DNA of 25,616 nucleotides, taken from a virus (taxonomy: Duplodnaviria > Heunggongvirae > Uroviricota > Caudoviricetes). Each line of letters starts with the position of its first letter. Within the stretch, counting starts at the first letter, position 1. The translations under genes and the position numbers were made by a program. Positions 13,439 to 25,616 of this stretch are shown here, in pieces. The stretch spans positions 1 to 25,616 of the IMG/VR virus record IMGVR_UViG_3300029033_000243. The stretch is one strand, 5' to 3'. The notes below the pieces were generated by a model, which had not been told where the DNA came from, ran no database searches, and saw nothing but the letters and a program-made list of their open reading frames with translations.

Positions 13439-14014
13439 TTAAGACTCAGCACACAACTCTAAAAAAGAACCTTTATAATAAAAAAGACCAGACTTATCAT
13501 TTAACTCTGTAAATAGCTTACAAGCTCTTTTATGACACTCCAATGCACTGTTTTCATTACGACTAACTATAATTGTTTCTTTCTCCTTATTGTCTGCATC
13601 CAGAAAACTCTTCAATAAGAATTGAATAATGTAATCTTCTTCAGGGAAAGAATACCCAATAAAAATCAGAACATCTGCTTGTCTTAGTTGACTAGATGAT
13701 TTAATAAATGCATTTTTGAAGTATTTATCACTATAATTTTGATCATTAGATGGTAATATTATATTCGGACATGACTTTATATCATTTAATGAGTCGTAAT
13801 CAATTTTAAAGCCATCACCTTCAGCAATAACCTCAAACCCACCATTTAATTTATAGAGTCCAACTCCACCTTTTTTAGGACAAGCGACTTCGTTATTAAT
13901 ATGAATGGGAAAACCACGTAATTGAGTCCTAGCAGGATTGGAGAATTTCAAAACCTTATCAATAACTATATCATAATTTGTAGTTATAATATCCAAAGAT
14001 TTGGAACATTCCAA
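13439..14014 (-). CDS. SIR2-like (NADase-type) effector, C-terminal portion; frame is open upstream to an in-frame TAG at 14132-14134
   Basis: ORF-track piece begins at TTG; carries ITTNYD (nt 13970-13984) and LIFIGYSFPEED (GYS nt 13649-13657) SIR2-type motifs; AT-rich; same frame as the 14132..14527 piece. Confidence 0.6.
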   Translation of the reverse strand: MECSKSLDIITTNYDIVIDKVLKFSNPARTQLRGFPIHINNEVACPKKGGVGLYKLNGGFEVIAEGDGFKIDYDSLNDIKSCPNIILPSNDQNYSDKYFKNAFIKSSSQLRQADVLIFIGYSFPEEDYIIQFLLKSFLDADNKEKETIIVSRNENSALECHKRACKLFTELNDKSGLFYYKGSFLELCAES

Positions 14015-14131
14015 TCCATTAAAAAACCTGATAATATCATCTTTATGTTTTCTTGCAGCACCCTTGCTATCAAGCTTAAATTCACTCGCAGGCAGTAATC
14101 TTACAAATTTATTCTTAATGTAATTCTTGAC

Positions 14132-14527
14132 CTACCGTTCAAAATAGTCCAGAGTCTGTTTATCCAAATGAGATGGTAAAAGACTAGGGTATCTGCGGTA
14201 AACATCAAGATTGTACTTAAAACTCTTAAATACGCCAGCCCTTTCCTTTTCACAAACAGTTTCTGGATGCAGATTCAGATTAAAAGATTCAAATAAAGAG
14301 AAAAATTTAAACTTATCAGAATATAATTCAGCTTCTTCTTTTGACAACGAGAAAACTTGATCACTCAGGGGATATTTTTCATCCCAAGCTTTAGAAAAAC
14401 CAGCACCTAAAAAAACACATATTTTCTTATCGTCTAGCTTCCGATGTAAATCATCGAAGGACTCTATTCCTAGAGAATTACCTTCTTGAGCCACACCATC
14501 ATAGTCAAAGTCTAATTTATCTAACAT
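14132..14527 (-). CDS. SIR2-like effector, N-terminal portion (Rossmann GAGxS motif), ending at an in-frame TAG
   Basis: 131 aa; KICVFLGAGFSKAW (nt 14393-14407) is the SIR2 dinucleotide-binding motif; ATG overlaps the ATPase stop (TAATG), indicating translational coupling. Confidence 0.6.
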   Translation of the reverse strand: MLDKLDFDYDGVAQEGNSLGIESFDDLHRKLDDKKICVFLGAGFSKAWDEKYPLSDQVFSLSKEEAELYSDKFKFFSLFESFNLNLHPETVCEKERAGVFKSFKYNLDVYRRYPSLLPSHLDKQTLDYFER

Positions 14528-15768
14528 TATTTTTCTTTCCCTACCAATCCCAAAAAGGAAGGAAGAACACCAAATTCCCCTCGAAAATACTTAGCCGAAA
14601 CCTTAGCATCTTTCCTAATTGAAAACTTTGATGCATTGATAATATTCGAGGCTTTTTCTTTATCTTTGATAATAATATTTAATTCATCTCTTCTGAAGCA
14701 TTCATCCAATAAAGGAATATTATGAGTAGATAATATAAATTGCATATCATTTTTCTCTAAATGATATGTTAAGATACTTTTAATTAAGGTGGTAGCCAGA
14801 GAATGATGAATAGATGCATCTACTTCATCAACATAAAGCGTAAACCCACAATCAGTTGTCCAAATAACTGCAGCCATGAATGTTAATATATTCATAGTCC
14901 CTTGTGAGAAAAACTCATCCCTCTCACCTGGACCTATGGTTGTAAAACCACCATCAAGATTTTTTATCTTGTAGACAAAGTGATATTTTTTATCACTACC
15001 TACAGGAAGAAAATCGACACCATCAATATGAAGGGGTGCCTTTAAAATAACATCACCATACAAACCTAACAGATTCTTAGCATTATCATTAATGGTTACC
15101 TTCCCATTATCATCTTTAGTCAGTAGTTCTTCAAACTTGGATTCAAAAAACTCCAACCCTTTACCAAAAAATATTTCAGGATTATATGGTAATTGAGATA
15201 CAGCCCAATCTCTAACATTAGTCATTTCTTTGGATTGCAAAGATTTCGCAAATGTTATTACTGCACCAGAATCTTTAATAATTGGTTTTATAAGCGTTTC
15301 ATGCTTTTTGTAAGTTGGTTTTTTAAACTCCAACTCATCTCCATTACGAATAAAAATACAACTTTCTTTTGCTCCTTTCTTCACTTCTCTTGAGTAAAGA
15401 TATTCACTAACAACCTTACCTTCAAAAACAGATATCCCATATCGAAGAAAAGTGTCTTTTTCTTTGTTTACAATAATAACTTCATAAGAGGTCGGACTTA
15501 GTCGATTTTTACTATCGAACATGTACGGTTTATGGAGTTCATTCAATGTGTCACGATGTATAGATCGAGCAAAATCATTTATTGCTCTTATTATTTGAGA
15601 TTTTCCTGCACCATTCCCACCAATAATTGCAGCAAATCGATTAATTCTTAATCCATTGTCTAACAACATAGTATGATCAAGGTGTTCATCACCAGCGGAT
15701 GACACAAAACTTAGAGTCTGCTGGTCTCTAAAGCTCTTATAATTCTCTATCGTGAAGGCAATCAGCAT
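14527..15768 (-). CDS. ABC-type / AAA_21-like ATPase (OLD/PtuA/AriA-like architecture), first gene of the two-gene cargo operon
   Basis: 413 aa; Walker A GGNGAGKS (nt 15598-15621, verified by translation); Walker B/D-loop LYVDEVDASIHH; late STHN motif; N-terminus MLIAFTIENYKSFRD typical of these ATPases; AT-rich. Confidence 0.8.
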   Translation of the reverse strand: MLIAFTIENYKSFRDQQTLSFVSSAGDEHLDHTMLLDNGLRINRFAAIIGGNGAGKSQIIRAINDFARSIHRDTLNELHKPYMFDSKNRLSPTSYEVIIVNKEKDTFLRYGISVFEGKVVSEYLYSREVKKGAKESCIFIRNGDELEFKKPTYKKHETLIKPIIKDSGAVITFAKSLQSKEMTNVRDWAVSQLPYNPEIFFGKGLEFFESKFEELLTKDDNGKVTINDNAKNLLGLYGDVILKAPLHIDGVDFLPVGSDKKYHFVYKIKNLDGGFTTIGPGERDEFFSQGTMNILTFMAAVIWTTDCGFTLYVDEVDASIHHSLATTLIKSILTYHLEKNDMQFILSTHNIPLLDECFRRDELNIIIKDKEKASNIINASKFSIRKDAKVSAKYFRGEFGVLPSFLGLVGKEK

Positions 15769-16838: not shown

Positions 16839-17072
16839 TTAATGCAGCCAGCTGTCGTCCTCCCACACCTTCTGCATAATTTTCATCACTTGTTTTCTTT
16901 CTTCATCCAGTTGCAGTCCGGTTAGTTCCACACCGTTAGAGCTACCTTTGCGAATGCGAATTACCGTTTTGGGATACAGGGGGCGCAGATTGCGGTAAAG
17001 CTCGGATTCAAGGGCGTCCAGGGTAGACTGGCTAATCTTCTGCTCTTTATCGATCATTATTTCAATGCGCAT
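16839..17072 (-). CDS. DinI-family protein, Tum-like antirepressor domain
   Basis: From the internal Met (MRIEIMIDKEQ...LDALESEL...VWEDDSWLH), 77 aa aligns by eye with E. coli DinI (MRIEVTIAK...ETWESADDWFVSE). The ORF-track frame extends upstream to 17144, overlapping the preceding ORF. Confidence 0.7.
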   Translation of the reverse strand: MRIEIMIDKEQKISQSTLDALESELYRNLRPLYPKTVIRIRKGSSNGVELTGLQLDEERKQVMKIMQKVWEDDSWLH

Positions 17073-17082
17073 AAAAGTCACC

Positions 17083-17271
17083 TCAGCTGATGACATCCAT
17101 TGAGCGGTTGTATTCGTGGCTTCTGATTTTTGCCATGAGTTCATCAGTCAATTCAGAAACCCACTGCAGAGCCAGCCCCTTCTCTTCATCACTACACTCA
17201 CTAGCCGCTACAAGCTTAAGAAAAAAATCAATGCGCTGGAGCTTCAAAGACTCCAAAAAATAGTCCTGCAT
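17083..17271 (-). CDS. small ORF (62 aa) preceding the DinI-like domain; possibly the N-terminal part of a Tum-like antirepressor
   Basis: ATG with AGGAGG 4 nt upstream; LexA box about 40-60 nt upstream; its 3' end overlaps the DinI-like frame. Confidence 0.5.
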   Translation of the reverse strand: MQDYFLESLKLQRIDFFLKLVAASECSDEEKGLALQWVSELTDELMAKIRSHEYNRSMDVIS

Positions 17272-21735: not shown

Positions 21736-22245
21736 TCACAGCAAACCGAATGAAGCACCGAGGCCAGTCACGGTATCAACTGCACTCGCCATCGCAGGAT
21801 TAGCCTGTAAACGGGCCTGCAATGAAACAGCGGCCAGCGCCATCAGTCGTGTTACAGAGTTAATGCTGCTGATAGCATCACGACGACCTGCACTGGTTTT
21901 TACATCGCCAGATACCGCACCTGCTGCAACACGCCCGATCTCTGCGGTTGCACTCATGACGTAATGTGGCAGTTTCTCTTTTGCCACCTCATTAATCGGT
22001 ACGCATGGCAGGCAGTAAATCTGAGCCAGAAAACCATCTACTAGCGTTGAATCTTCAGTCAGATCGGTAAGCAACCAGATTTCTGGTGCGGTTAATAAAT
22101 GAGGTTGAGCTGGGTTCAGCTTGTTCCGCAGAATCTGCACATTCATGCCTGCACGTTCTGCCAGTTGCACCAGGTTGTGGCGCAGTGCGAATGCACGACA
22201 GGCTTCATCAAAATGTGGATGTTTGGAAACTTGGTAATCAAACAT
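21736..22245 (-). CDS. B: replication protein gpB
   Basis: Internal Met [33 protein letters not shown]... matches my recollection of the P2 gpB N-terminus; ORF-track frame extends to 22299. Confidence 0.8.
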
Positions 22246-22277
22246 AGTCGACACCCCTGATGTATCCCAAAATGGAA

Positions 22278-22499
22278 CTAGTTGAACACAACATTGCAAT
22301 CAGTAAGTGCATCAACGGTAAGAGCAGCAAGGTTGATCATTACCTTTTCTCTTTTTTTGTCTTTACGAAGACGATGCCGAGGGATGCGACCATCTGCCAG
22401 CATATCGTTGATTGTGTCGATTGAAAGACCAGTAAGTTCGCTATAACGCTCGATTGTGACATGTGGCGTATTCAGAGTTATTGAAATGTTAGGGGTCAT
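22278..22499 (-). CDS. Cox/Apl-like excisionase-regulator (small HTH protein), first lytic gene
   Basis: 73 aa; divergent from the repressor gene across an 88-bp switch region; HTH-like [18 protein letters not shown]. Assignment is positional; sequence similarity to P2 Cox was not recognised. Confidence 0.5.
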
Positions 22500-22587
22500 G
22501 ATGCAACATCTCCTATTGGCTTGTGGTGAGTCAGTTTTAATCGTGACTTAAACTTCACATTACGGAGAATAGGATCGCAATTCGGTT
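22500..22587. promoter_or_regulatory. immunity switch region (divergent lytic/lysogenic promoters and operators)
   Basis: Intergenic between divergent Cox-like and CI-like genes, as in P2 (Pe/Pc) and 186 (pR/pL); individual hexamers not confidently assigned. Confidence 0.5.
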
Positions 22588-23514
22588 ATGTCAACACACG
22601 AAATCACATTTCGCCATGTGGACGAAAAAAAGAAATCCTTAATCATGCAGAATCGCGGAGGGCAAGCAGTCATCGAGCGGATATTAGAAGCGTATGGTTT
22701 TTCTTCACGCCAAGCATTCTGCAATCATCTGGGGATATCACAGAGCACAATGGCGAACAGGTATGCGCGTGACACTTTCCCAGCTGACTGGGTTGTTATC
22801 TGTAGTATGGAAACTGGTGTATCGATTGAGTGGTTAGCATTTGGTACTGATACCGAAATGGAAAGCTTTGCAGATAAAAGTCACGACAATTGTAACAGTG
22901 AATCTCGGCACCTCAACAGAGAACCTAAAAACCCAAATGAGAACACTGTTACTATAAATCAAAACGGAAAAGCAGCAATAGAGCGAATCGTTGCAGCCTA
23001 TGGATTTAAGACAAGACAAGCTTTAGCTGATCATTTGGGTATTTCAAAAAGCACACTAGCTAATCGTTATATGAGGGATACATTTCCAGCCGATTGGATT
23101 ATCCAATGCGCACTTGAAACTGGTATATCACTAGATTGGCTCGTTACTGGAAAAGGCTCAAAATCGAACGATGTAAATACTGATGTAGCAAAGTTATTAG
23201 CATATAAGCTAATAAATGGTAAGTTAATAGATGCGGACTATATCCACTTTGATAAATCTTTAATACCACACAACCTTATAAATCCGCAGGTTGTGATCGA
23301 TAGCGAAAATGTTTTCGTAGTAGACTATGGATATAAAGAAATATCTGATGGTGAATGGTTAGTAGAAATTGAAGGCAAAATAAATATTAGAACATTGGTC
23401 CGCATACCCGTAGGAAAAGTTAAAGTAATATCTACTCATGCTGATTTCATATGTGACATTGAGAATATAAAACTTTTAGCAAAATGCCACTGTGCTTTCA
23501 TTAAAAACATTTAA
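22588..23514 (+). CDS. CI-like immunity repressor with tandemly duplicated N-terminal DNA-binding domain
   Basis: 308 aa; two ~63-aa segments (res ~24-86 and ~126-188) share IERI..AYGF..RQA...HLGIS.ST.ANRY.RDTFPADW...ETG.S..WL..G, resembling the 186 CI-type N-terminal domain; followed by an AT-rich C-terminal domain. Confidence 0.7.
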   Translation: MSTHEITFRHVDEKKKSLIMQNRGGQAVIERILEAYGFSSRQAFCNHLGISQSTMANRYARDTFPADWVVICSMETGVSIEWLAFGTDTEMESFADKSHDNCNSESRHLNREPKNPNENTVTINQNGKAAIERIVAAYGFKTRQALADHLGISKSTLANRYMRDTFPADWIIQCALETGISLDWLVTGKGSKSNDVNTDVAKLLAYKLINGKLIDADYIHFDKSLIPHNLINPQVVIDSENVFVVDYGYKEISDGEWLVEIEGKINIRTLVRIPVGKVKVISTHADFICDIENIKLLAKCHCAFIKNI

Positions 23515-23526
23515 TTTGGACTTATC

Positions 23527-24498
23527 ATGGACTCTAAAGAACACAAAAAAGAAACAATACAAAACAGCATCACAAAATCAGAGTTTAAAAAATACGTTGA
23601 TTTTATACATGATGATTCTATTCCACTTCCTGAACATGAACGCACATATCTAAAGAACTTGTTGAAAAATGGTGAAATTGAAGAATTCAAGGATCAATAT
23701 AGACGCCATCTCCAAAACTTAGATAGAGTCGGCTTTAGCGACGAAGATATTGAATTACAACTTAACGTGTTAAAAAAAGATAATAATGAATTCAGAAACT
23801 TATTACGTTTTTATACAGCTCGCTTATCTGATTTGCAAGAAAGCAACACCTCATTATCATTAAAAAACAAAGAGTTAGAAAATTTAAACATAGAAAAAGA
23901 ATCTTTACTTGAGCAAACTTTTTCTAGGATAAAAGAGTTAGAGGCTTCAAATAACGAATTAACCAGTCGAGCACATCAAGAGAGAATTGATCAAAAAATT
24001 CCCGAATATGTCAATAGTGTAAAAGATGATTTAGGTGATGATGATGATCACTTTATTTCACTCGCCAAAACATGGGCTATTGCTGGTGCAATAGCCGGTC
24101 TTTCCGCTGTCATTTTTTCGTTCATATCATTATATTTTGTTACTGATTTCATAAATGCTAAAGGATTTGAACTATTTTATCTATTCACCAGAGGCCTGAT
24201 TGGAATTTCCATTTTATCATGGCTTTCTTATATCTGTCTGAGTATCTCCAAAAAGTATACTCATGAGTCCATTCGCAGAAAAGACAGAAGGCATGCCTTA
24301 ATGTTTGGTCAAGTCTTCCTACAAATTTACGGTTCGACTGCGACCAAAGAAGATGCTATTCAGGTATTTAAGGACTGGAACATGTCTGGAGATTCTGCTT
24401 TTTCTGATCAAATGGATTATCCGCCAAGTTTCCAAACGCTATGGTCTACCGCGAAAGAAAAAATCAAACCTTCTCATTCAGAAAAATCCTCCGATTAA
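23527..24498 (+). CDS. AT-rich cargo gene: 323-aa coiled-coil protein with two C-terminal transmembrane helices (candidate superinfection-exclusion/abortive-infection protein)
   Basis: Between repressor and integrase, same strand; heptad-like region (LSDLQESNTSLSLKNKELENLNIEKESLLEQ...); hydrophobic helices WAIAGAIAGLSAVIFSFISLYFV and LIGISILSWLSYICLSI; AT-rich. Confidence 0.65.
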   Translation: MDSKEHKKETIQNSITKSEFKKYVDFIHDDSIPLPEHERTYLKNLLKNGEIEEFKDQYRRHLQNLDRVGFSDEDIELQLNVLKKDNNEFRNLLRFYTARLSDLQESNTSLSLKNKELENLNIEKESLLEQTFSRIKELEASNNELTSRAHQERIDQKIPEYVNSVKDDLGDDDDHFISLAKTWAIAGAIAGLSAVIFSFISLYFVTDFINAKGFELFYLFTRGLIGISILSWLSYICLSISKKYTHESIRRKDRRHALMFGQVFLQIYGSTATKEDAIQVFKDWNMSGDSAFSDQMDYPPSFQTLWSTAKEKIKPSHSEKSSD

Positions 24499-24531
24499 AT
24501 AAGTGATGTATATAAAATACATAAACATACA

Positions 24532-24559
24532 TTGACACTGGTTATGCATACAGTAAAAA
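24532..24559 (+). promoter_or_regulatory. putative sigma70 promoter upstream of int
   Basis: TTGACA (24532-24537), 16-nt spacer, TAAAAA (24554-24559); GGAGG upstream of the int ATG. Confidence 0.3.
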
Positions 24560-24584
24560 TGCTCTCTATTGGAGGGCATTTTTT

Positions 24585-25616
24585 ATGGCTGTACGAAAAC
24601 TCACCACAGGAAAATGGCTTTGCGAATGTTACCCCGCCGGACGTAGTGGGCGTCGTGTGCGTAAACAATTCGCCACCAAAGGCGAAGCACTGGCTTTTGA
24701 GCGTCACACGATGGAAGAAACCGAAGCAAAGCCCTGGCTGGGTGAATCAGTGGATCGTCGAACACTGAAAGACGTGGTTGAGCTATGGTTCAAACTACAT
24801 GGTAAATCACTGACTGCTGGGCAGCATGTCTATGACAAATTGCTGCTGATGGTTGACGCTCTGGGCAATCCCCTTGCAACTGATCTAACCTCTAAAATGT
24901 TTGCCCACTATCGAGATAAACGCCTGACAGGTGAGATCTACTTCAGCGAGAAATGGAAGAAAGGAGCAAGCCCGGTCACCATTAACCTAGAGCAAAGCTA
25001 TCTAAGTAGTGTTTTTAGCGAACTATCCCGCCTGGGCGAATGGTCGTATCCGAACCCACTGGAGAACATGCGAAAATTCACCATCGCAGAAAAAGAGATG
25101 GCATGGCTTACCCATGAGCAGATTGTTGAACTGCTGGCTGATTGCAAACGTCAGGACCCAATTCTGACACTGGTAGTCAAGATATGCCTAAGCACAGGCG
25201 CACGCTGGCGAGAAGCAATAAATCTTACCCGCTCGCAAGTGACCAAATACCGAATTACCTTTGTAAGAACGAAGGGGAAGAAAAACAGAAGCATCCCTAT
25301 CAGTAAAGAGCTTTACGAAGAGATCATGGCGCTTGATGGGTTCAATTTCTTTACAGACTGCTATTTTCAATTTTTATCCGTGATGGAAAAAACGTCTATC
25401 GTGCTCCCTCGCGGTCAACTGACACACGTTCTGCGCCATACGTTTGCGGCGCATTTCATGATGTCGGGTGGAAATATCCTTGCTTTGCAAAAAATCCTCG
25501 GACATCACGACATAAAAATGACTATGCGTTACGCACATCTGGCACCGGATCACCTGGAAACTGCATTACGGTTTAATCCGCTGGCAACACTACCAACATC
25601 AATAGCAATTTTTTGA
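24585..25616 (+). CDS. int: tyrosine integrase (P2-type)
   Basis: 343 aa; C-terminal catalytic region with LRHTFAAHFMM and HHDIKMTMRYAHL (conserved R, H-x-x-R, Y); stop codon is the last three bases of the window. Confidence 0.9.
   Translation: MAVRKLTTGKWLCECYPAGRSGRRVRKQFATKGEALAFERHTMEETEAKPWLGESVDRRTLKDVVELWFKLHGKSLTAGQHVYDKLLLMVDALGNPLATDLTSKMFAHYRDKRLTGEIYFSEKWKKGASPVTINLEQSYLSSVFSELSRLGEWSYPNPLENMRKFTIAEKEMAWLTHEQIVELLADCKRQDPILTLVVKICLSTGARWREAINLTRSQVTKYRITFVRTKGKKNRSIPISKELYEEIMALDGFNFFTDCYFQFLSVMEKTSIVLPRGQLTHVLRHTFAAHFMMSGGNILALQKILGHHDIKMTMRYAHLAPDHLETALRFNPLATLPTSIAIF

Follow-up and report, generated by a model that had tools for sequence, protein, structure and literature searches.

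A two-headed variant of the 186-type CI repressor encoded at the immunity locus of a P2/186-like prophage

The CI repressor of phage 186 is among the best-studied alternatives to lambda CI for phage switch design. It has one DNA-binding head per subunit and forms a wheel of 14 subunits (seven dimers) that wraps DNA. The 192-residue chain (PDB codes 2FJR, 2FKD) combines a head of family PF07022 with an oligomerisation domain of family PF16452. P2 C and lambda CI fill the same role, that of immunity repressor at a bistable lysis-lysogeny switch, but their folds and sizes are unrelated or distant, there is a single DNA-binding domain per subunit and PF16452 is absent. Here we describe a repressor gene of the 186 type in a stretch of viral DNA of 25,616 nucleotides (nt), the whole of which we call the window (Caudoviricetes; IMG/VR record IMGVR_UViG_3300029033_000243, positions 1 to 25,616). 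The gene, cI, occupies 22588-23514 on the plus strand and its product carries two heads of different ancestry in front of one C-terminal domain (CTD).

Open reading frames (ORFs), Pfam and RefSeq assignments, compared with the annotated 186 record, give the switch a 186-type layout. Here cI lies upstream of int and faces apl, cII and fil, and pR adjoins its start. The two loci are alike in their protein families, in gene position, in a pR-like promoter next to the start of cI, in three candidate sites across pR and in the possession of a Tum-like gene. They differ in that 186 CI has one head per subunit and the protein described here two, the extra head being of another lineage and carried on a disordered linker of about 40 residues. 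A further difference from 186 is that the window contains no A-type sites above chance, no recognisable FL or FR, and a hotspot gene between cI and int. Seven complete genomes, Escherichia coli CFT073 (NC_004431.1) among them, match positions 22400-24600 of the window at 99.8% identity. RefSeq labels the CFT073 product, at 99.8% identity, 'phage repressor protein CI'. The host prophage is P2/186-like and was named PhiECO3 by Nilsson et al. 2011 (PMC3448106).

Residue numbers used here refer to the 308-residue frame that opens at the ATG at 22588; use of Met20, at 22645, would shift all of them by 19 and leave 289 residues. The stop codon is at 23512-23514. Pfam reports two stretches of PF07022 (Phage_CI_repr, E = 1.9e-61) and one of PF16452 (Phage_CI_C, residues 205-301, E = 4.8e-29), and NCBIfam offers no model specific to the two-headed product. 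In the 308-residue frame the chain begins with an extension (residues 1-23, 22588-22656) which at the DNA level overlaps the -35 hexamer of pR and one operator-like box. Head N1 follows (residues 24-86, 22657-22845), a PF07022 helix-turn-helix (HTH) domain with recognition helix SQSTMANRYAR, of a type that we term the N1 class. A linker of 39 residues (87-125, 22846-22962), hypervariable and predicted to be disordered, leads to head N2 (residues 126-188, 22963-23151; best PF07022 stretch 129-191), with recognition helix SKSTLANRYMR. N2 is the canonical head in that it adjoins the oligomerisation domain, and this AT-rich CTD (23152-23511, PF16452) matches PDB codes 2FJR, 2FKD and 7JVT. Neither N1 class nor N2 class is the name of a published immunity group; we use both as working terms.

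N1 and N2 are identical at 40 of 63 positions (63.5%), with 62% identity in the DNA, and BLASTP aligns the two halves of the protein with 54% identity over 82 residues (E = 1e-34). N1 by itself aligns with the N-terminal domain of 186 CI (2FJR, E = 1.2e-12), and N2 together with the CTD aligns with residues 10-180 of the same structure (E = 3.9e-26). An AlphaFold2 model, for which 31 two-headed homologues provided the input, predicts a five-helix domain for each head and a beta-rich CTD, with a predicted local distance difference test score (pLDDT) above 90, and a pLDDT below 50 for residues 89-115 of the linker. Linker identity among relatives is 18-56%. The protein is a variant of the 186-type CI repressor that departs from the plan of a single head attached directly to the CTD in each subunit.

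Purifying selection acts on both heads. Across 11 two-headed loci the ratio of nonsynonymous to synonymous differences (pN/pS) is lowest in the heads (N1 0.10, N2 0.20) and higher in the linker (0.76), in the short arm that ends the linker (0.60) and in the CTD (0.66), synonymous differences being near saturation, which compresses the values for linker, arm and CTD. Read in the two other frames the N1 region gives 2.0-2.6. The invariant positions of the HTH correspond between the heads (Ser53, Thr54, Arg58 and Arg61 in N1; Ser155, Thr156, Arg160 and Arg163 in N2), and a cysteine, a glutamate and a tryptophan of the later helices are likewise invariant in both.

How widespread is this architecture? 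Two heads are present in 48 of the best 120 clusters, formed at 90% identity, that were found with the protein. These come from E. coli, Klebsiella, Salmonella, Enterobacter, Citrobacter, Kosakonia and Edwardsiella. Full-length homologues occur in Klebsiella phage records, and Kp4872-2, which was read directly, has both heads. DNA resembling N1, at a query coverage of at least 80%, is found in 239 of 5426 complete E. coli genomes, roughly 4%. In a set of 1.84 billion proteins clustered at 50%, a single-head query matches 275 representatives at E <= 1e-3, and at least two head stretches are present in 36 of the best 150 of these. A scan of species-representative genomes, in which 2 of 80 loci are two-headed, served as a comparison set and not for counting. 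More than two heads are also seen: protein P0222 (834 residues) has five stretches, P0240 (343 residues) four, and P0232 and P0239 three each.

The first-pass annotation of this DNA had described residues 24-86 and 126-188 as homologous repeats, about two-thirds identical, and the identity given above agrees with that. It had proposed alignment with 186 CI and a search for single- and double-domain homologues; the alignments place both segments on 2FJR, and the search returned proteins of both kinds. Its reading of the second segment as a DNA-binding domain holds, N2 being a PF07022 domain that aligns with 2FJR, and the frameshift fusion of adjacent genes that it named as the way to be wrong is at odds with a layout found in 48 clusters and many genomes.

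One further relative is an isolated and sequenced phage. The CI protein of the temperate, P2-like Salmonella phage PsP3 (AAN08403.1, 286 residues; AY135486.1 23218-24078, equivalent to locus L100 1919-2779 on the minus strand) also combines two PF07022 stretches with PF16452. The two PsP3 heads agree with one another at 50% of positions and with the heads in the window at 32-48%; judged on these values the tandem heads of PsP3 probably arose separately. A literature search, with most subscription journals outside it, returned no description of a two-headed 186-type CI beyond one study in which the extra length of the PsP3 and PhiECO3 proteins was ascribed to 'a longer C-terminal domain' (PMC3448106). 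The two-headed family is common in databases and generically annotated, and apparently it is undescribed.

A neighbour-joining tree of 166 heads places most N1 copies in a clade of their own and intersperses the N2 copies among the heads of single-headed CIs. On average, N1 copies are 73% identical to one another and 62% identical to single heads, and N2 copies are 79% identical to single heads. The N1 and N2 of one protein are 43-70% identical (mean 61%). The N1 of the window shares 84% of its residues with the sole head of P0098 and of L076, both single-headed CIs; for N2 the best agreement, 86-89%, is with the heads of a different set of single-headed proteins that includes P0120 and P0049. 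N1-type heads stand alone in proteins P0098, P0069, P0119, P0118 and P0050 and in loci L076 (Buttiauxella), L024 (Enterobacter) and L038 (Lelliottia). These N1-class single-headed CIs (for example P0098, P0119 and L076) share with the two-headed loci an extension of the form MST..IT.RH, the N1 head and the layout of boxes at pR. Single-headed CIs of the N2 class (P0049, Klebsiella phage KP12, L010) share the KYPxEIKINPNQ arm, the N2 head and the type of CTD. The two single-headed classes, which have a single head and a single operator type each, look like the two parents of the two-headed form.

The arm is informative here. Single-headed CIs of the N2 class start with MSTSKYPSEIKINPNQGGKAAIERL, and the same arm directly precedes N2 in the two-headed proteins. 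It has the motif K-x-P-x-E-x3-N-x-N-Q, takes up about the last 11 codons of the linker (22930-22962) and reads KNPNENTVTINQ in the window. It is homologous to the MSTSKYPSEIKINPNQ... of L010, L011, L012, L020, L036 and KP12. Because N2 carries the N-terminal arm of its class, and because the heads match different single-headed CIs, the gene is best described, on comparative grounds, as an extension and N1-class head, a variable linker, and an N2-class repressor from about its codon 5 onward; that is, as the fusion of an N1-class head onto a complete N2-class repressor. By the same comparison it is not a recent in-place tandem duplication, since each copy is more closely related to heads of other proteins than to its partner.

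The clearest recombination joint near cI is the boundary between N2 and the CTD. E. coli 65COLEC shares the operator region (94-100% identity per 50-nt segment), its heads are 72-94% identical and its CTD is different (42-64%). The nearest CTDs belong to single-headed proteins (51-53%), and those of other two-headed proteins reach at most 48%.

Base composition tells a less consistent story. The GC content is 0.48 in N1, 0.41 in N2 and 0.31 in the CTD, with corresponding values at third codon positions (GC3) of 0.43, 0.24 and 0.26. For the heads alone the GC3 contrast is marginal (27/63 against 15/63, Fisher p = 0.037). N1 has the higher GC content in only about half of 11 loci, which rules out the contrast between heads as a trait of the family; the consistent fall is in the CTD (0.26-0.35) and the downstream hotspot. 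In addition, the N2 of this gene is more AT-rich than the heads of N2-class single-headed proteins (GC3 0.24 as opposed to 0.41-0.49). The contrast between a GC-rich first copy and an AT-rich second copy plus CTD, which the first-pass annotation had pointed out, is thus real for this gene and does not extend to the family. The conclusion it drew, that the copies were joined from different lineages and are not a recent duplication, is upheld by the matches of the two heads to different single-headed CIs, although base composition does little to support it.

The control region of the switch was compared with those of single-headed relatives and with 186. A pR-like sigma-70 promoter directed toward apl occupies 22566-22594 on the minus strand, with a -35 hexamer TTGACA (22594-22589), a 17-nt spacer and a -10 hexamer TATTCT (22571-22566). 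A promoter scan matches 10 of 12 hexamer positions, both hexamers are kept in all two-headed loci, and the promoter is placed relative to cI as the annotated pR is in 186. Three direct N1-class boxes, TCRCAWWWCGS on the plus strand, are candidate CI operators at 22555-22565 on the start site, 22575-22585 in the spacer and 22604-22614 upstream of the -35 hexamer, with spacings of 20 and 29 base pairs (bp). The operators of P2 C are direct repeats too (PMC2995052). In the annotated 186 record the stretch between the cI start codon and a point slightly beyond the -10 hexamer, which spans pR, holds three CI sites, and the palindrome TCTCCCAATTGAGAGA is located in the promoter spacer.

Box positions are counted relative to the ATGTCAA landmark. 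N1-class boxes occur at -33, -13 and +16 in two-headed and in N1-class single-headed loci, though not all three in every locus, and none was found at those positions in five N2-class single-headed loci. The latter carry YCCCAAWTGRGA boxes at -39 and +17 in flanks that are otherwise near-identical. That the positions are shared while the sequences are class-specific, the type following the promoter-adjacent head, is the pattern that would be expected of operators. Since the box type follows the head encoded beside the promoter, the pR of the two-headed prophage is of the N1 class. No N2-class boxes were found at pR of the two-headed loci.

An operator-like sequence of the other type is located inside the gene. 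The palindromic box ACCCAAATGAGAAC at 22930-22943, which resembles the core of the 186 pR site, is a candidate relic of the pR-proximal operator of an N2-class phage. It holds a constant position before N2 in most two-headed loci examined. In L004 and L005 it reads TCCCAATTGAGA, equal to the core of the 186 pR sequence TCTCCCAATTGAGAGA, and N2-class single-headed loci carry TACCCAAGTGAGATC at +17. The +17 box of the N2 class sits in the arm codons and appears, from this comparison, to have travelled with N2 into the interior of the gene. The pattern YCCAAWTGRGA occurs twice in the window against an expectation of 0.09; the second match, at 14163, is inside an unrelated ORF and is probably due to chance.

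Other candidate sites were considered and discarded. The A-type sites of 186 (ATTCAC-N5-GTGAAT) give 22 matches with up to three mismatches where 13.2 are expected, none of them well placed, and no convincing pB-type sites were found in the window. The 'Type II' boxes AAATGGAA were rejected as targets of N2, being either class-independent or not conserved. Two of them lie in the ogr/B promoter; a third is upstream of cII at 22270 and a fourth within cI at 22856. Phages with two-headed, N2-class and third-class CI have essentially the same ogr promoter, and the site at 22856 is conserved in no relative. In the ogr/B promoter of CFT073 (L091 2160-2215; NC_004431.1 ~941960-942015) there are two direct repeats CRAAATGGAAT, 41 nt apart, upstream of an ogr/Delta-like late activator gene; they are near-identical across three CI classes and are not A-type sites of the 186 pB kind. 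The element TCCCAAAATGGAACTAG (22264-22280, plus strand), some 25-35 nt before the start of cII (22245), is located where 186 has FR and pE. It is kept in every CI class examined, the N1-class single-headed loci included; it probably helps to control cII or pE expression and is unlikely to be a class-specific CI operator.

The start codon of cI may be either 22588 or 22645. The ATG at 22588 lies in ATGTCAA, the complement of the -35 hexamer of pR. RefSeq starts the CFT073 gene at 22645, and several relatives are annotated from the upstream ATG. Codons 2-19 display no constraint at the protein level (pN/pS 0.79), codons 20-23 do (pN/pS 0.17), and codon 20 is ATA, CTG or TTG in some relatives. 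Conservation of the extension is seen in the DNA, where ATGTCAA and CACATTTCGCCAT are invariant in 10 loci. The latter (22605-22617, plus strand) is unchanged, third codon positions included, in all 10 two-headed loci with a pR context, which suggests a role at the DNA level, as part of the +16 box, and not at the protein level. In L087, where the cI copy is not next to pR, CACATTTCGCCAT is changed at two positions. The invariance was set aside as proof for or against a coding extension, as it does not settle the start codon.

What might two heads of different class do in one repressor? Doubled operators and dual immunity, both suggested in the first-pass annotation, can be entertained as reasonable hypotheses. 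We consider it probable, with moderate confidence, that the protein is a working chimeric immunity repressor in which N1 serves the prophage's own pR and N2 keeps the specificity of its parent class. As in 186 CI, the CTD would drive the formation of dimers and of a higher oligomer. N1 would bind the three N1-class boxes over pR and so turn off the lytic operon (apl, cII and the replication genes), while N2 would retain the specificity of its parent class. N2 might then shut off the pR of superinfecting N2-class relatives, making the lysogen immune to two classes of phage, or it might hold the complex on the relic intragenic box, about 340 bp from pR, as FL does in 186 (about 290 bp); the two options could apply together. 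The specific proposal of a dual-immunity repressor, with N1 silencing the prophage's own pR and N2 that of superinfecting N2-class phages, is possible and we advance it tentatively. Phages of the N2 class are near-identical to the two-headed ones in the remainder of the genome and occur in the same host species. Single-headed prophages of the N2 class are present in 173 of 5426 E. coli genomes, and in Klebsiella, where the two kinds of phage have identical late genes, the Ogr proteins of the N2-class phage KP12 and the two-headed Kp4872-2 are identical.

Several observations weigh against this interpretation. In the AlphaFold2 model (mean pLDDT 76.9, predicted TM score 0.39) the mutual arrangement of the domains is unreliable. 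N1 is separated from the CTD by about 100 residues, as opposed to the directly joined head of 186, and it is hard to see how it would be placed on a 186-like oligomer. The operator boxes, which are candidate sites, were located by eye and by comparison; TCRCAWWWCGS matches nowhere else in the 25.6 kb of the window, but these three sites are also the ones from which the pattern was built. About half of the two-headed loci have a degenerate form of the intragenic box (TTCGAYAATGAAA in L003, L085, L087 and L089) and, as the box also encodes the conserved arm, it may have been conserved for the sake of the protein sequence instead of the DNA. Lastly, no class-specific flanking sites equivalent to FL and FR of 186 were found for either the N1 or the N2 class.

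Some of the same evidence might be read to mean that N2 is silent, with N1 alone binding operators, N2 serving as a structural base for assembly or spacing of the CTD, and the intragenic box a mere relic. The presence of only N1-class boxes at pR, the degeneracy of the intragenic box and the somewhat weaker constraint on N2 than on N1 would all fit. We nevertheless think it unlikely, since N2 keeps every residue that is invariant in working single heads, including the S-K-S-T-L-A-N-R-Y of the recognition helix, and its pN/pS still signifies strong constraint where a pure spacer should have decayed like the linker. A composite operator, in which both heads of a subunit bind side by side at pR so that each dimer covers four half-sites, with a gain in affinity or cooperativity, and no second specificity exists, is less probable again. 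The close grouping of three boxes at pR and a flexible linker of 40 residues that could reach neighbouring sites are compatible with such binding, but N1-class single-headed phages have the same boxes in the same positions, so the joining of N2 added no sites, and the two-headed loci are without N2-class boxes at pR. Because pR bears only N1-class boxes, dual specificity is preferred over the composite operator and fits the data better.

The extra head could instead concern induction, as a decoy or docking site for a Tum-like antirepressor or that of a rival phage. In 186, Tum inactivates CI by binding to it, and the prophage has a Tum-like gene with a DinI domain. This explanation is nonetheless very improbable, given that the conserved residues of N1 are the DNA-contacting positions of the HTH and that N1-class heads are the sole DNA-binding domain of their single-headed relatives. 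Hardly credible at all is that the gene is an artefact of sequencing or annotation, with a frameshift that fuses adjacent cI genes, or that it results from a recent tandem duplication in place. Adjacent cI pairs do exist in some E. coli, and an ancient fusion by deletion is conceivable. However the frame is open and 99.7-99.8% identical in seven independent complete genomes (four of which are CFT073 assemblies), the layout recurs in the 48 diverged clusters, in several genera and in isolated phages, and the low pN/pS of N1 is confined to the annotated frame. Duplication is further contradicted by the closer relationship of each head to other proteins than to its partner.

The genes around cI conform to a prophage of this type. 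On the minus strand, the first gene of the early lytic operon, heading away from cI, is an apl/cox-like ORF (22278-22499; RefSeq WP_000188448.1) upstream of a 186-type cII of the Phage_CP76 family (21736-22245; PF06892, E = 3.2e-41; RefSeq coding sequence of 510 nt). Beyond these are fil, a DUF5347 gene, a Dam methylase and replication genes. At 16839-17141 on the minus strand, downstream of the replication gene, is the ORF of a protein of 100 residues with a DinI-like domain (PF06183, E = 1.2e-22), which is likely to be the counterpart of Tum, the SOS-controlled antirepressor of 186. On the plus strand the last gene of the lysogenic operon is the integrase (24585-25616; RefSeq 'phage integrase').

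Between cI and int is an AT-rich ORF (23527-24498, plus strand, 323 residues, GC about 0.30) with a weak, sub-threshold Pfam match to DUF2207_C; its product matches nothing in NCBIfam or PADLOC. In related prophages this slot holds an OLD-like ATP-dependent nuclease, a KAP P-loop NTPase, GmrSD with a HEPN protein, or other unknown genes, and it has the look of a variable hotspot that accommodates defence or accessory (moron) genes. Three adjoining minus-strand ORFs at 13439-15768, between the packaging genes and the early region, are probably a second anti-phage defence island of the prophage. They encode a SIR2_2-domain protein (13439-14011), a protein of 130 residues with no assigned function (14132-14524) and an AAA_21/SMC-like ATPase (14527-15765).

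The same slot can also hold a repressor. E. coli ZH48 (L087 1824-3367) has tandem cI genes: a single-headed cI of 189 residues with its own pR region, a gap of 50 nt, then a two-headed cI of 307 residues that lacks a pR -10 hexamer, so that a single prophage encodes three heads. Seventeen complete E. coli genomes, E2348/69 among them (NC_011601.1 ~855795-856295), have this tandem pair with 100% conservation, and the second cI occupies the cI-int slot that is elsewhere home to defence genes. Such tandem genes lend support to the view that phages retain additional repressor specificities for the sake of immunity.

A repressor that is naturally common and has two heads of different ancestry raises several questions. 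How does the oligomer hold doubled DNA-binding domains? Which head reads which operator? Does the addition of a head widen the range of immunity? If dual immunity is correct then the gain would be one-sided, a two-headed phage being able to grow on N2-class lysogens and not vice versa. Extra heads, or whole cI genes as in E2348/69, would then represent a repressor-based anti-phage defence at the immunity locus and a form of superinfection exclusion missing from current catalogues of defence systems. They would also offer temperate phages a simple, modular route by which to evolve immunity.

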